Assembly (NCBI RefSeq): GCF_002251735.1 | Contig: NZ_NOXS01000033.1 | Coordinates: forward strand, 74,040-98,039 | Reading direction: 5' to 3' | Length of the DNA stretch: 24,000 nt | Origin: Elstera cyanobacteriorum | GTDB lineage: Bacteria > Pseudomonadota > Alphaproteobacteria > Elsterales > Elsteraceae | Part shown: one piece after another, positions 2 to 5,556 of the stretch | How the letters are laid out: every line of letters begins with the position of its first letter | How positions within the stretch are numbered: the first letter of the stretch is position 1 | Program-made: the position numbers and the translations under genes | Notes under the pieces: model-generated | Told to the model about the DNA's origin: nothing | Seen by the model: only the letters and a program-made list of their open reading frames with translations | Database searches by the model: none

Positions 2-232
2 AAGATTGCGCAAAAAGTGGGGGAAGAGGCGGTGGAAACGGTGATCGAAGCCATTCGCGGTAAGCGCAAGCGCCTGGTTTCGGAAAGCGCCGACCTTCTG
101 TATCATCTCACCCTGCTCTGGGCGGCGTCGGATGTAGAGCCTGGCGACGTGTGGCGCGAACTGGCCCGCCGCGAAGGCGTGTCGGGCTATGCCCATCTTG
201 GCCGCGAAAACGAGAGCGACGACGAAGATTGA
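2..232 (+). CDS. hisE: Phosphoribosyl-ATP pyrophosphatase (HisE), C-terminal part; the 5' end lies outside the window
   Basis: The frame is open from the window edge and reads [48 protein letters not shown]. The ADLLYHL helix and the ..L.RR.G ending are typical of HisE/MazG-like proteins. Stop codon at 230-232. Confidence 0.85.
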
Positions 233-273
233 CCCCGGGGCGGCCCTGCCCCGGTCCTTGTGGGGAGAGCCGC

Positions 274-636
274 GTGTCCTACGATCCGTCCAATATCTTT
301 GCCAAAATTCTCCGGGGCGAAATTCCGTCAAAGCCGGTTTATGAAAGCGACCATGTTCTGGCGTTTCCAGATATTGCACCGCGCGCCCCGGTGCATGTGC
401 TGATCATCCCGAAAGGCGCCTACGTCAGCGCTCAGGATTTCAGCGAAAAAGCCAGCCCGGCGGAAAAAGCCGCTTTCTTCGATGCCATCGGCGCCATCGC
501 CCAACAGTTCGGGATCGCCGACAGCGGTTACCGTCTGATTGCCAATACCGGCGCCCACGGCCATCAGGAAGTGCCGCATTTTCATTTGCATCTTATCGGC
601 GGGCGGGCGCTTGGCTCCATGCTGCCGAACGACTAG
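274..636 (+). CDS. HIT-family (histidine triad) nucleotide hydrolase/transferase
   Basis: Carries the histidine-triad motif HFHLHLIGG plus NIFAKILRGEIP..VYE.D..LAF.DI.P.APVH.LIIPK. I place the start at GTG 274, preceded by GGGGAGAG (262-269). The ORF-track start at 151 overlaps hisE and gives an Arg/Pro-rich non-protein-like N-terminus. Confidence 0.85.
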   Translation: MSYDPSNIFAKILRGEIPSKPVYESDHVLAFPDIAPRAPVHVLIIPKGAYVSAQDFSEKASPAEKAAFFDAIGAIAQQFGIADSGYRLIANTGAHGHQEVPHFHLHLIGGRALGSMLPND

Positions 637-703: not shown

Positions 704-2047
704 TTAGGCGGCGCCCGCTTCGATCAGATCGAGCGGGTGCAGCACTTCCAGCAACAATTGCCCGCGCCCGCCCTGGGTCAGCCGAATGCCATTATCGCGC
801 TCCTCCAGCCGCCGTTTCAGCAAAATGAGGCGGGTGGCGAGATTATCGGAGAGGTGCGGCAGGCCAAGCTGTGGATCGAGCCGCAATTCCCGACTGGAAA
901 AGCGCGTGCGGCCATTGGCGGCGAATTCGCGCAGCAGCTTCCATAAGATCGCCCCGGCAACCCCTTTGATCAGATAATCATCGTTCAAAAACACCGTCGC
1001 TGTGCCCGAGTAATAGCGCACCCGCAAGGCCGATCCGCTGACAGGGCAGTCGCAGGGCGGGGTTTCCTCCGGAAGGTCCGCGTCGAACTCCGAACAGTCG
1101 CCGTCTTGGAACTGCATCAGCAGCGCACCGAAACTCAGCCCGATGACCGATAGCGCGTCTTCAATCTCATACGTGAAGGCGTGATTGCGCGGGCTTTCTA
1201 CAAACAGAACGCCCTTTAGCGTGCCGCCAATTGCAATCGGAACGGCGAGCTGGCTTTGTGGGTCGATCAGGCCCGGTAAGGGGATTTCGGGGGCAAGGTC
1301 ATAGGCATCGCCCGCCGTGCGGCGGATGGCGCGGGTATAGGCATTTTCGTGCAGCATATGATTGATGCGGATCGGGGCGCTAACCTCGGCGCAAACCCCG
1401 ATGACGCCATCGCCCAGCGCTACCTCCGATCCGACCCCGGAGGTTGCATAGCCATGACTGGCGAGGGTATAGAGCCGCCCACTGCCGCGATCCAGCGCGA
1501 GCACCATACCATGCTCGATTCCCAATTCCCGCGCTAAGGTGGGGAATAAGGCAGAAATCAGGGCGTCCCCGCTGCGGCAGCGGCTCAGGGTGTCCTGAAC
1601 CCGCCGCAAAGCAGGCATTAAGCTGGGCTGCGCCGGTAACGGTCGGGCGGCGCTATTGACCTTTTCGATAGCAATGACGCGGTAAATATCGGCCCCGCGC
1701 AGTTGGAACACCTCCGCCATTCCGTGATGGGAGGCGATTCCGGCCAGCTTGGCGCGCATCCGCTCGAACAAAGGGCCGTGGGTTTCGGTGCGCAGATATT
1801 GCACACTAATTCGATATTTCTCCGAACTGCCCGGATGCAGCACCAGCACCTGGGCATAGGGGTTCTCGAGAATATTCTGCCGAGTTTTATTGAAGAACTG
1901 AAAGCTGAGGGCGAGGTGCGACTCGTCGAGATACAGAATGTCCGAAAGGTAGGAGACATTCACCTCCCCCGAGGCCGAGGTGGTGGCGATGGCGGACGGT
2001 AGAATCCCGTCCAGCGCGTCGCGAAAGGCGCTGAGGTGTAAGCTCAT
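704..2047 (-). CDS. Putative one-component sensor regulator: PNPOx-like split barrel + GAF + C-terminal OmpR/PhoB-like winged-helix region
   Basis: 447-aa ORF whose start overlaps the upstream gene stop (ATGA, 2044-2047).
- aa 1-135 look like a PNPOx-like FMN-binding split barrel (LPSAIATTSASGEVNVSYLS..LALSFQFFNKTRQNILENPYAQVLVL..YRISVQY).
- aa ~145-312 look GAF-like (GMVLALDRGSGRLYTLASHGY..GVIGVCAEVSAPIRINH..LAVPIAIGGTLKGVLFVES).
- An acidic Cys-containing linker follows (DGDCSEFDADLPEETPPCDCP).
- aa ~339-435 fit the Trans_reg_C pattern by eye (AILWKLLREFAANGRTRFSSRELRL..NLATRLILLKRRLEE..IRLTQGGRGQLLL).
Domains were assigned by eye only. Confidence 0.65.
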   Translation of the reverse strand: MSLHLSAFRDALDGILPSAIATTSASGEVNVSYLSDILYLDESHLALSFQFFNKTRQNILENPYAQVLVLHPGSSEKYRISVQYLRTETHGPLFERMRAKLAGIASHHGMAEVFQLRGADIYRVIAIEKVNSAARPLPAQPSLMPALRRVQDTLSRCRSGDALISALFPTLARELGIEHGMVLALDRGSGRLYTLASHGYATSGVGSEVALGDGVIGVCAEVSAPIRINHMLHENAYTRAIRRTAGDAYDLAPEIPLPGLIDPQSQLAVPIAIGGTLKGVLFVESPRNHAFTYEIEDALSVIGLSFGALLMQFQDGDCSEFDADLPEETPPCDCPVSGSALRVRYYSGTATVFLNDDYLIKGVAGAILWKLLREFAANGRTRFSSRELRLDPQLGLPHLSDNLATRLILLKRRLEERDNGIRLTQGGRGQLLLEVLHPLDLIEAGAA

Positions 2048-2529
2048 GCCGCCCCCGCAATCTGCCGTCCGGCCTGCGGTCCCGGGGTTTGATCGAAAAT
2101 CGCCTCGGGCCGGTACCGGAAAACGGTGAGCAGTGCAGGATCGTACCCCAGATAGGCGCGCGACTGTGGTTCGGGATAATCCACCTTCTGAAACTCCACC
2201 ACCATGCGCTCAACCGCCCCCAGCAGCCAGTGCTGTTCCCCGGCATCGGCGTCGCGCAGGCCTAGAAACCGGCCTTTGATCTGATAGGTTTGCAAGCTCG
2301 TCGGGCGGCACATGACGCCCGCGACCGAGGCCCCGAGGGGCGGCACCGGGTCGATCATCGTTCGATCGAGACCATTCAGAAAAATACCAACCTCGTCCCC
2401 GCGCCATTGGCAGGCAATCCCGCGCGTGATGACAGGAATGCCGCCAGGACCGGCAACGGCCAGAACAGCCGTGATCGGTCCTTCCAAGAATCGCGCAAGA
2501 TCAGGACTGGGGTAAACCTGGGCCGCCAT
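2044..2529 (-). CDS. PNPOx-like / flavin-reductase-like split-barrel family protein (161 aa)
   Basis: Sequence pattern FLEGPITAVLAVAGPGGIPVITRGIA..GDEVGIFL......YQIKGRF is typical of pyridoxamine-5'-phosphate-oxidase-related split barrels. An RBS GAGGGA lies 4 nt upstream of the ATG. There is a 12-nt gap to the hemerythrin gene and a 4-nt overlap with the downstream gene. Confidence 0.6.
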   Translation of the reverse strand: MAAQVYPSPDLARFLEGPITAVLAVAGPGGIPVITRGIACQWRGDEVGIFLNGLDRTMIDPVPPLGASVAGVMCRPTSLQTYQIKGRFLGLRDADAGEQHWLLGAVERMVVEFQKVDYPEPQSRAYLGYDPALLTVFRYRPEAIFDQTPGPQAGRQIAGAA

Positions 2530-2541
2530 TATCCCTCGCCG

Positions 2542-3213
2542 CTAGGCTGCTATGTTTTCCCATAGTCTTTTCATCTCGAACTCTGTCAAGCGGGCCGTCA
2601 ATAGGTCGGTCACGGCGGCGACCACCGGCGGCGGTGCAGCGGCCCGCAGCCCGGCGAATTTCTCTGCGCGTTGGGCGGCGGTCAGGTTTGGTAGCATCCA
2701 TTGCAGCACCTGCATCGCTTCCTGCGGGCTTTGGCTGGCGACGATCTGATGTTCGATGGCGGCGATTTCTGCATCGCTTAAATGCGCCCACAGGATCTGC
2801 ATATGGCGCGTTTCCTCGTCGTGCATATGCTCGAAATCGATGGCGAGGAACTGGGCAAATTGAAGATAAAGCGCATAGCCCAGCCCTTCCCGCGCGTCCG
2901 GGCGGGCGAGGCTGAGCGCTTCAGCCGCGGCCTCAAGCTGGCGCAGCGCTTCCGCATGGCGGTCGTGCTCGGCGACGGCGGCGGCCTCGCTGCCCGGCAC
3001 AAGGCGCGCCAGGACCGGATGGATGAAGCGATCTTCGTGCGCAATATGCAGCCAATGGACCGCCAAATGGTCGCGCAGGTCGGTCAAGGTTTTACGGGTG
3101 TTATCCTCGTGCTGCCAATCGGCGCGACCGAGTTTGACCAGAATATCCGTAGACCAAGCCCGTAAAGCCTTGTGAATCGGACCGTATAAATCATAGCGCT
3201 GCGGTGTAGACAT
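2542..3213 (-). CDS. Hemerythrin-like (HHE cation-binding) domain protein with a ~70-aa C-terminal extension
   Basis: His/Glu ligand motifs are spaced as in a hemerythrin four-helix bundle: PIHKALR, WLHIAHEDRFIHP, AEHDRH, FEHMHDEE. RBS GGGGGAAGG lies upstream of ATG 3213. This is the first gene of the three-gene operon. Confidence 0.8.
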   Translation of the reverse strand: MSTPQRYDLYGPIHKALRAWSTDILVKLGRADWQHEDNTRKTLTDLRDHLAVHWLHIAHEDRFIHPVLARLVPGSEAAAVAEHDRHAEALRQLEAAAEALSLARPDAREGLGYALYLQFAQFLAIDFEHMHDEETRHMQILWAHLSDAEIAAIEHQIVASQSPQEAMQVLQWMLPNLTAAQRAEKFAGLRAAAPPPVVAAVTDLLTARLTEFEMKRLWENIAA

Positions 3214-3289
3214 TCGACCTTCCCCCGATAAGGTTAAAAACGAGGGAGGCGTTATACAGATTTTATCGAATCACTATTTTATAATAATT

Positions 3290-3318
3290 TGCTAAGGGAA
3301 TGCTAAATATATGCTAAG
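3290..3318 (-). promoter_or_regulatory. Three phased 7-bp direct repeats TGCTAA(G/A) (7-bp repeat + 4-bp spacer, 11-bp period); candidate transcription-factor binding array
   Basis: TGCTAAG at 3290-3296, TGCTAAA at 3301-3307 and TGCTAAG at 3312-3318, with spacers ggaa and tata. The array lies 77-105 bp upstream of the hemerythrin start codon inside an AT-rich island (3214-3375). That island also contains several -10-like hexamers on the minus strand (TAAAAT twice, TATAAC). Confidence 0.45.
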
Positions 3319-3365
3319 AGACATAAAATAGTGCGCTATATGGACTAAGTATTTCCTAGTCTAAT

Positions 3366-3413
3366 TCTAAAAACAAGACGGGCTTCCTGACGCCCCTGTC
3401 AGAAAGCCCGTCT
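3366..3413 (-). terminator. Rho-independent terminator of the MCP gene
   Basis: The minus strand reads AGACGGGCTTTCTGAC-agggg-c-GTCAGGAAGCCCGTCT (arms at 3376-3391 and 3398-3413, one mismatch) followed by TGTTTTTAG. It sits 26 nt after the MCP stop (3439). Confidence 0.75.
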
Positions 3414-3438: not shown

Positions 3439-5556
3439 CTAGGCTGTGCCGGTGCGAATTGCCCCCAGGAAGCCGTTAACCTCCCGGTCAAGGTCGCCCG
3501 CTTCGCCCGCCAGCAGCTCCGCCGCGTGCAGCACGCCCTTCGCCGCTTCGCCGGTGGAGGTGGTGGCCCCGCGCACCCGTTCGATGATATGGGCGACGCC
3601 CTGGGTTCCTTGGGCGGCTTGATCGGCACTGCGGGCGATTTCGCCCGTGGCGGCACCCTGTTCTTCCACGGCAGCGGCGATGGTGGCGGCGATGCCGCTG
3701 ATATCGCCGATGATCGTATCGATCTGCGTGATCGCGCCGATGGCGGCCCGGGCGCCCTGGGTGATCGAGCCGATTTGCGAGCCGATTTCTTCTGTCGCTT
3801 TTGCCGTCTGCGCCGCCAAATTCTTCACCTCACCCGCGACCACGGCAAAGCCGCGCCCGGCTTCCCCGGCCCGCGCCGCCTCGATAGTGGCGTTGAGGGC
3901 CAGAAGATTGGTCTGCGACGCGATCCCATCGATCAGGCGCGCAACCTCGCCGATGCGTTCCACCGCTTCAGCCAGCCCGCGCACCGTATCGCCCGCCCGC
4001 CGCGCTTCCGCCACGGCCTGATCGGCGATCGTGTTGGAATGCACAACCTGGCGGGAAATTTCGCTGATCGAAACAGTCAATTGCGCCGATGCCGCTGCCA
4101 CGGCATCAACATTGCCGATGGCCTGCGCGGCCGCTGCCGCAACCTCCGAGGTCTGTGCCGTCGCGCCATCGGCCAGGGTCGCCATCGAGCCGGAGGCATT
4201 GCGCATTTCATCCGCCGCCCGCCGGACGGTAGTTACGATGCGCGCCACGCTTTGTTCGAACTGGCTGGCCATTTCATTGAGGGATTGGCGCCGTTCCTCT
4301 GCCGAACGCTGACGCTCGGCCTCGGCTTCAGCCCGTGTGGTTTCAACTTCCATCGCCGTCTGGCGGAAGACATCGAGTGCCCGCGCCATCGTGCCGATTT
4401 CATCGTCCCCAGAAACGCGCAAGGTTTCATTCAGACGCCCCTGGCGCACGGCTTCCATGCCATCTGACAGCAGGGTCAGACGGCGGGCGATGGTGCGATG
4501 GCCGATCCCCCAGCCGACCGCGAGCGCGATCAACAGGCTGGCCCCCGTCAGGGCCATCTGCATGCCCCCGGCCTGTTCGACCAGTTCCTGCGTGCGAACC
4601 CCCTCTGCATGGGCTTCAGCCTGAACGCTTTGGGCCATCTCGTCGATCTGGGCCGACAGCATCTGCGCCTGGGCGCTGATTTTCTTCAGGGTTTGCAGAA
4701 CATTGGTTTGCGCGGCGATCCGCCGCTCGGCAATGACGAAAACGCCGCTTCCCGTATCGGTCGCCAGTCCTAGCAAGCGTTGCACCGGCCCGACCAGATC
4801 AACGTCCTGCGAATCTTTCGACAGGGTGACGAGGCGGGTTTCGAGATGGCGCAGGATCGTTTGGGTCTGCGTCTTGCTGCGCGTAAGCTGGTCGTTGCTG
4901 GTCGCCTGCGCCGCCTGCCGGGCCAGCAGGGACGCGCGTTCGACATCGAGCAGCACGGCGGAGGCTTCTTCGTAGACTGGGAAATGCAGTTCCGCCATCG
5001 CCTGGAGCATTTCCAGGCCCTTGTCGTAATTATTCGACAGTTCCAACGGCACTTCGGTCAGGGTCAGGGAAAGGCTGAAGCGCGCGCGTTCGGCCAGTGG
5101 CGCTACCCGGTCGTTCAAAATGCGCGAGGTGACGGAGATATTTGCCAGTCGCGCCCGTAAATCTTCTTCGGTATTCAGATAGGCTTCGCGCGCTTTATGA
5201 ACCTGGGTTACCTGTTCATTGAACGCGGTGACCATTTCACTCAGCTTTTCATTGTTCTTAAGCTGGCGGGTTAAGGTCCATAGCTTTTCGATGCGATTAT
5301 CAAGCGACAGCTTGCTCGACTCGAGGTTCGCGAGGTCCGGCGCATCCCCTAGCGTTGGCGCCAGCGCGGCAATGGCATTGGCTTCGGCCTTAAGGTCGCC
5401 CGCAACGGCGACCGCCGGTAGTTTTTCGGTCTGAACGACGGCAAAGGCCGCGCCCATCCGATCATATCCCCACAGGGCGGCCCCGCCGCCAACGGCAGCA
5501 AGGGATGCCAAACCCGCCAAAGCCACGAACAGCTTTGTCTTGATCGTTAGCCGCAT
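3439..5556 (-). CDS. Methyl-accepting chemotaxis protein (TM1, ~300-aa helical periplasmic sensor, TM2, HAMP, MCP signalling domain)
   Basis: Carries the highly conserved signalling hairpin [46 protein letters not shown]-like segment follows TM2 ([26 protein letters not shown]). N-terminal TM helix [35 protein letters not shown] lies upstream of the ATG. Confidence 0.95.

Follow-up and report, generated by a model that had tools for sequence, protein, structure and literature searches.

We analysed a 24,000-nucleotide (nt) stretch of the Elstera cyanobacteriorum genome (assembly GCF_002251735.1, contig NZ_NOXS01000033.1, positions 74,040 to 98,039; hereafter the window) with a focus on the gene at 704..2047 of the reverse strand. 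This gene encodes a predicted transcriptional regulator of 447 amino acids (aa), hereafter the regulator, and lies in an operon with a small partner gene and a gene for a hemerythrin-like di-iron protein, downstream of a predicted operator. The main features of the locus are as follows, with positions counted from the first letter of the window.

704..2047 (-): regulator gene, 447 aa, comprising a split barrel, a GAF domain, an acidic linker and a winged helix; identified from the open reading frame (ORF) and its translation, full-length homologues and an AlphaFold2 (AF2) model.
1643..2047 (-): PNPOx-like split-barrel domain, aa 1-135, the presumed cofactor-binding input; PNPOx_N match, homologues and Foldseek.
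1103..1615 (-): GAF domain, aa 145-315; GAF_2 match, and profile and Foldseek matches to the PtsP GAF domain.
1040..1102 (-): acidic, Pro/Ala-rich and probably flexible linker, aa 316-336, with C318, C332 and C334; low model confidence, charge and alignment.
707..1039 (-): C-terminal domain, aa 337-447, a predicted winged helix of OmpR/PhoB topology and a sequence orphan; AF2 domain model and Foldseek.
2044..2529 (-): gene of the 161-aa partner, again a PNPOx-like split barrel; its stop codon and the start codon of the regulator overlap in ATGA, as read directly.
2542..3213 (-): gene of a 223-aa hemerythrin-like di-iron protein, at the head of the operon and the predicted target; 40% identity to a Cupriavidus neighbour with PF01814.
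3276..3320 (-): predicted operator; CTTAGCA, TTTAGCA and CTTAGCA at an exact 11-bp period (3318-3290), plus a degenerate fourth unit.
3251..3265 (-): candidate -10 hexamers, TAAAAT (3265-3260) or TATAAC (3256-3251); the assignment is uncertain.
3376-3413: a 16-bp stem plus T-run, scored as an intrinsic terminator, which closes the chemoreceptor gene at 3439-5556 and forms the upstream boundary of the operon control region.
151-636 (+): HIT-family gene, which converges on the regulator gene with ~70 nt between the two ends.

A chance ORF at 704-2047 can be excluded because thousands of full-length homologues exist, at ~50% identity to the 447-aa product. An NCBI protein of E. cyanobacteriorum, named ‘GAF domain-containing protein’, was 99% identical to it. 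The AF2 model of the full-length regulator (mean predicted local distance difference test (pLDDT) 82.3; predicted template modelling score (pTM) 0.80) was divided into a barrel (aa 18-130), a GAF domain (aa 144-315), a stretch with pLDDT <50 (aa 316-330) and a compact C-terminal domain (aa 341-444). A preliminary description of this DNA, made from its letters only, had proposed both this reverse-strand ORF and the order barrel, GAF, linker and C-terminal domain. Pfam, the AF2 model and the homologues all agreed with this proposal, and its coordinates for the four segments fell within a few residues of the model. It had also described the protein as lacking a receiver, which was borne out: no receiver domain (PF00072) was detected in the regulator, as Pfam returned only PNPOx_N and GAF ahead of the winged helix, and the AF2 model of this region likewise consisted of a split barrel and a GAF domain, i.e. 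no receiver fold. With sensor domains and a predicted DNA-binding output on a single cytoplasmic polypeptide, the domain order is that of a one-component regulator. This designation, made in the preliminary description, gained support from a conserved direct-repeat operator that adjoins the gene family (described in detail below).

The N-terminal domain is PNPOx-like by family and by fold, though its own match to PNPOx_N (PF01243; aa 9-97, 23.7 bits, E = 6.8e-5) was below the Pfam cut-off of 28.1. Most homologues exceeded this cut-off, with PNPOx_N matches at 31-44 bits. Foldseek retrieved the flavin mononucleotide (FMN)-binding protein 3in6 (E = 1.9e-7) and HupZ (7kpz, E = 7e-7) with the regulator barrel, and a profile search against the PDB retrieved HutZ (3tgv) at E = 0.07. 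The GAF assignment was supported by matches to GAF_2 (PF13185; aa 172-303, 32.8 bits against a cut-off of 28.6) and GAF (PF01590; 22.9 bits against 22.4). The structures of the PtsP GAF domain, 3ci6 and 3trc, were found both by profile (E = 5e-12 and 4e-11) and by Foldseek with the full-length model, where they ranked first (E = 8e-9). NifA and Nlh2 GAF domains were also among the PDB matches and, as with PtsP, these are of the small-molecule-binding type. Matches obtained with the full-length model covered the GAF domain and the barrel only. Phytochromes were among them through the GAF domain alone, with root-mean-square deviations of 9-16 Å, and a phytochrome or bilin reading was rejected. 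As a separate observation, cysteines occupied the positions of aa 11 and 23 in the barrel (nt 2015-2017 and 1979-1981) in 76% and 79% of the family, and that of aa 157 at the start of the GAF domain (nt 1577-1579) in 83%. The Elstera regulator retains Cys157 only. These three cysteines were more conserved than those of the linker, and could matter in other lineages.

A separate model of the C-terminal domain was computed from 47 aligned family members. This isolated AF2 model (pLDDT 89.6, pTM 0.85) consisted of three strands, a helix, a strand, a short helix, a loop, a long helix, a hairpin and a last strand (in domain-model numbering, strands 6-11, 16-19 and 22-25; helix 27-43; strand 47-49; helices 50-55 and 66-82; strands 86-90 and 95-100). 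In the Foldseek comparison with the PDB, 10/11 best matches were OmpR/PhoB DNA-binding domains (template modelling score 0.47-0.66, probability 0.85-1.0), led by SaeR (4u88 and 4qwq), AdeR (5x5l), BaeR (4b09), Rra (3q9v) and PrrA (1ys6); for SaeR, AdeR and BaeR the template modelling score was 0.55-0.66. The model thus indicates a winged helix of OmpR/PhoB topology, the fold named in the preliminary description, in a domain that is not a member of Trans_reg_C by sequence. This was also the most conserved part of the regulator, with 22 invariant residues among the 47 sequences, and its sole net-basic part (+6 in Elstera, +1 to +7 in the family). In the family consensus, the long helix (helix 3) carries DNLEARLxLLxRRL and the hairpin turn carries GRGRF, with invariant Arg at both places. 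Where the family has LLxRRL and GRG, the OmpR-type proteins of the Elstera genome itself have RLRKKL and G.GY.

Between the input domains and the winged helix lies the linker, whose sequence is DGDCSEFDADLPEETPPCDCP, with cysteines at positions 318, 332 and 334. Its net charge is -7 in Elstera and was negative in every member of the family, in which linkers are 21-39 aa long and rich in Pro and Ala. The AF2 model left it disordered (pLDDT <50 at aa 316-330). The preliminary description had located the three cysteines correctly and had suggested that they form a metal or redox switch controlling the winged helix. Such a triad does occur in Elstera and in its two nearest homologues (84-89% identity), and a CxC motif with a third cysteine beside it can bind metal. 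However, among 42 aligned homologues (49-89% identity) the three columns held Cys in only 5/42, 4/42 and 7/42 sequences, respectively. The full triad was confined to 3/42 homologues, all at ≥84% identity; one linker Cys was left in homologues at 67-74% identity, and 25/42 linkers had none. The segment that carries these cysteines is disordered and variable in length, and the rest of the protein, its partner and the operator are all conserved, unlike the cysteines. From the alignment, the linker cysteines would be a lineage-specific feature and a cysteine switch could not be the mechanism of the family; we therefore regard this explanation as highly improbable.

A gene of ~165 aa was located immediately upstream of the regulator, on the same strand, in 84/84 beta- and gammaproteobacterial loci, and overlapped it by 4 nt in 46. 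PNPOx_N (PF01243) was matched by 13/36 members of this partner family. The Elstera partner itself gave no PDB or Pfam match. The hhalign alignment of the partner with the regulator barrel was full length and in register, though weak (E = 0.026). An invariant QTPGPxAG motif was seen at the C-terminus of the partner (aa 147-154). Natural fusions of the two proteins exist, among them P0127, a 660-aa partner-regulator fusion (hhalign E = 3e-44). P0262 (623 aa) contains this PNPOx-GAF module too, but with a Ser/Thr kinase domain where the regulator has its winged helix; such reuse would be expected of a portable sensor. Split-barrel proteins act as dimers and bind their cofactor, flavin or heme, at the dimer interface. 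Because they work in this way, a heterodimer of the partner and the regulator barrel would be the simplest reading of the conserved gene pair.

Most split-barrel proteins are enzymes, the structural neighbours here include FMN-binding and heme-degrading proteins, and the cluster combines two barrel genes with one for an iron protein. The regulator could on these grounds be mainly an enzyme, a PNPOx/HugZ-type flavin or heme oxidoreductase under GAF control, within a cluster that represents a metabolic pathway. We give this explanation very little credence. The greatest conservation is found in the winged helix, the attachment of the barrel-GAF module to a protein kinase in P0262 is typical of sensor modules, and a conserved operator with a fixed promoter geometry would be difficult to reconcile with an enzyme.

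The first gene of the operon encodes the hemerythrin-like protein, which in Elstera shows weak similarity to the RIC/YtfE di-iron domain. In the beta- and gammaproteobacteria, a hemerythrin-like gene was located downstream of the regulator in 55/84 loci, and was convergent with it in 54/55. Among 151 sampled Burkholderiales genomes, 14 carried the regulator, in each case one copy, and 10 carried the hemerythrin-like gene, all of them within these 14 and none among the rest (Fisher's test, P = 8e-13; overstated, as related genomes are not independent).

A tandem array was identified in the regions upstream of the hemerythrin-like gene. The full element in the family comprises four TTAGCA-type units at an 11-bp period. 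Three units with ≤5/18 mismatches were found in 34/55 of these regions, versus 0.3 in shuffled sequences. The signal was strand-specific, with no array on the opposite strand of the same regions, and no array was found upstream of the partner gene in the beta- and gammaproteobacterial loci (minimum 7/18 mismatches). The Elstera array is preceded by the terminator of the chemoreceptor gene and followed by the hemerythrin-like gene. A 45-nt matrix was built from the 34 beta- and gammaproteobacterial sites, with the Elstera sequence excluded, and used to scan the whole 3.95-Mb Elstera genome. This returned a single outstanding site of 35.1 bits, at 3276-3320 (-) of the window, against 16.0 bits for the runner-up. 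The latter (G000:C24:7747-7791 (-)) is located upstream of an unassigned ORF, shows no obvious connection to this system and is probably noise.

Conservation of the array extended beyond the training loci. Independent hemerythrin-like loci scored 38-54 bits in 8/10 cases. In Noviherbaspirillum, the hemerythrin-like gene is located on a different contig from the regulator, and the array was kept (38.4 bits). Three alphaproteobacterial relatives had weaker arrays (7-18 bits) in the corresponding places. An array was found within 4 kb in 70/84 regulator loci, and at ≥30 bits within this distance in 21/29 regulator loci that lack the hemerythrin-like gene. A crude IUPAC pattern, applied to five genomes, was too insensitive and missed the true Noviherbaspirillum site; its match in Dechloromonas scored only 1-4 bits by the matrix and was rejected as an array. 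At ten of these array sites in loci without the hemerythrin-like gene, a downstream ORF of ~145-200 aa was scanned, and 8/10 of these ORFs matched Pfam Cytochrom_C. In Azoarcus sp. KH32C (L003:8554-9730), the small cytochrome c gene behind the array has a Cu/Zn superoxide dismutase gene next to it on the downstream side, a neighbour that hints at a link with oxidative stress.

The 70/84 figure bears on the question of which protein the array serves. The winged helix may not bind DNA at all and may instead make protein contacts, as in ScpB, with the array owned by another regulator such as an OmpR-family response regulator. The Elstera genome encodes 16 Trans_reg_C proteins, any of which might recognise direct repeats, ScpB-type domains were among the fold matches of the C-terminal domain, and this domain has no sequence homology to any DNA-binding family. 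Nevertheless, we consider such a division of roles improbable. The array accompanies the family in different classes and whatever the target gene, no response regulator was conserved in the neighbourhoods of the family loci, and the hemerythrin-like target occurs only where the regulator occurs. The basic character of the domain, with its invariant Arg on helix 3 and in the hairpin, also speaks against it.

A common promoter geometry emerged when 79 arrays were aligned by their ends. A conserved hexamer (TAGACT, TACAGT or GATACT) begins 19 nt downstream of the array and was read as a -10 element because its second A and sixth T were the best-kept positions. No -35-like hexamer was present in the 79 aligned arrays. 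Judged from these alignments, the array would span about -73 to -30, clear of the -10 element and of the transcription start. Such a position, in the absence of a -35 element, is the geometry of activator-dependent promoters in the OmpR/PhoB family. Activation would accordingly be likelier than repression, because the array is clear of the -10 element and the start and occupies the position used by OmpR/PhoB-type activators.

The same architecture and operator could instead belong to a repressor or a dual regulator that stays on the array until a ligand releases it. The Elstera array precedes the operon that includes the regulator gene itself, and repressors commonly control their own expression. 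The Rhodocyclales provide a further observation. In five of their loci (L003:6371-6415 (-), L058:5360-5404 (-), L057, L075 and L086), an array of 34-44 bits lies directly behind the regulator stop, on the opposite strand and pointing into the regulator gene, with no ORF after it. These arrays could be relics of a lost hemerythrin-like gene or antisense promoters, and they are at odds with simple activation. Against this, the beta- and gammaproteobacterial arrays end 19 nt before the conserved -10 element, cover neither it nor the start, and have no -35 element beside them. We consider repression or a dual role unlikely, though the most plausible of the alternatives weighed here.

Taken together, we think it likely that the regulator is a receiver-less one-component transcription factor, in which a barrel and GAF input controls a winged helix that acts on the 11-bp array and activates the hemerythrin-like gene. 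The computed support consists of the domain folds, the linkage and fusion of the partner, the conserved operator and its uniqueness in the genome, and the co-occurrence of the target. In this mechanism, the input module would be formed by the PNPOx-like barrel followed by the GAF domain, the barrel probably being paired with the separately encoded 161-aa partner. The flexible acidic linker would join this input to a very divergent winged helix of OmpR/PhoB fold. Several copies of the winged helix would then bind head-to-tail on three to four TTAGCA-type units spaced at 11 bp, just upstream of a promoter with a -10 but no -35 element. The result would be activation of the hemerythrin-like gene and, in Elstera, also of the regulator's own operon; in other lineages, the activated gene would be that of the small c-type cytochrome.

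In addition to the Rhodocyclales arrays and the caveat on Fisher's test, several findings weigh against this mechanism. Linkage is what assigns the array to the regulator as its binder. The Elstera array has three strong units only and its -10 element is ambiguous, and 4/5 Rhodocyclales genomes carry the regulator without the hemerythrin-like gene. The remaining findings concern the winged helix. Pfam scans of aa 300-447 and 324-447 gave no match at E ≤ 10, Trans_reg_C (PF00486) included, an NCBIfam scan of the C-terminal region gave nothing relevant, and neither the protein sequence by itself nor family profiles found a match for this domain among PDB sequences. The Pfam Trans_reg_C profile is what finds the 16 OmpR-type proteins in the Elstera genome; a profile of the C-terminal domain recovered none of them, and only the regulator itself. 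Comparison of the domain with the Trans_reg_C domains of the genome by hhalign gave local alignments in register yet not significant (E = 0.088 and 0.037, probability <2%). Membership of Trans_reg_C by sequence, which the preliminary description had implied, consequently did not hold. Finally, the best Foldseek E-value for the domain was modest (8e-3), with other winged helices, e.g. ScpB, close behind.

The nature of the signal can be narrowed to a few candidates. Since the targets are iron and heme proteins, O2, nitric oxide (NO), redox state, or heme or flavin status may be sensed, each with at most about one chance in three. Further clues come from the nearest neighbours of the barrel, which are the FMN-binding 3in6 and the heme-binding HupZ/HutZ, and from those of the GAF domain, in PtsP, NifA and Nlh2. 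We tentatively suggest, as a possibility that falls short of being probable, that a heterodimer of the regulator with its partner acts as a split-barrel flavin or heme sensor of O2, NO or redox state, which signals through the GAF domain to the hidden OmpR-fold domain. If this is true, a heterodimeric split-barrel sensor would be a previously undescribed type of input, and the family would represent a new and widespread class of signal transduction that has an operator code of its own and controls a small iron- and heme-protein regulon.

The family is large. In the homologue search, 7814/8000 scored candidates had E ≤ 0.001, 1183 clusters (50% identity) were obtained at E ≤ 1e-10, and at least 561 relatives were found among the species genomes. 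Its distribution is patchy, with the regulator present in 4/17 genomes of Elstera's own order. The combination of PNPOx, GAF and winged helix, presented as unusual in the preliminary description, is thus already abundant in databases. It appears there under generic names only (‘GAF domain-containing protein’, ‘hypothetical protein’ or ‘adenylate cyclase’), and a literature search on the barrel-GAF-winged-helix architecture found no paper and no published function. The family is therefore abundant yet unstudied in the literature searched, and thousands of database proteins carry a generic label or are wrongly called ‘adenylate cyclase’. The preliminary description had mentioned neither the operator array nor the genes of the hemerythrin-like target and the obligatory split-barrel partner. 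The family now has testable properties, namely a predicted DNA-binding domain that is invisible to profiles, a predicted operator, predicted target genes (for the hemerythrin-like di-iron protein and the small c-type cytochrome) and an obligatory partner.

Comparison with known systems places these properties in context. The nearest structural and profile neighbours of the N-terminal domain are HugZ/HutZ/HupZ and FMN-binding split-barrel proteins, whose PNPOx-like superfamily is also that of the partner. These are stand-alone enzymes or heme binders, whereas the barrel of the regulator is fused to signalling domains. The output resembles that of PhoB, which acts at pho boxes, and OmpR, which acts at ompF/ompC. 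The predicted winged helix has the same order as Trans_reg_C, with an N-terminal sheet, three helices and a C-terminal hairpin, and its basic LLxRRL helix and GRG turn stand at the positions of RLRKKL and G.GY in OmpR-type proteins. The predicted site is similarly made up of tandem 7-bp units with 4-bp spacers, i.e. an 11-bp period, beside a promoter that lacks a -35 element. Recognition of tandem direct repeats at a 10-11 bp period near the -35 region is an OmpR/PhoB trait; an array of this kind is conserved beside the family and unique in the Elstera genome, and it is from this linkage that we infer binding by the regulator. Unlike PhoB and OmpR, the regulator has no detectable sequence homology to this group, no receiver and no phosphorylation site; it would be driven by a split barrel and a GAF domain with a separate partner, and it has an extra C-terminal strand at 439-444.

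Winged helices of the OmpR fold that operate without phosphotransfer, with sensing by other domains of the same polypeptide, are found in ToxR/CadC/TcpP and in SARP/AfsR/EmbR. In these proteins the winged helix is N-terminal and the sensors are periplasmic or of the BTAD/NB-ARC/TPR/FHA types. In contrast, the winged helix of the regulator is C-terminal, the protein is cytoplasmic, and the predicted sensors are a split barrel and a GAF domain. The family would thus demonstrate that an OmpR/PhoB fold can be driven by non-receiver sensors on its N-terminal side, which is rare among known regulators. GAF domains serve as the small-molecule or metal/gas input of the transcription activators NorR and NifA, and in some betaproteobacteria genes for hemerythrin-like di-iron proteins are under the control of NorR-type systems. 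NorR and NifA combine this input with an AAA+ sigma-54 activator domain and a Fis-type helix-turn-helix (HTH). The regulator is like them in its GAF input, and unlike them it has neither the AAA+ domain nor the Fis-type HTH and is equipped with a split barrel and a partner.

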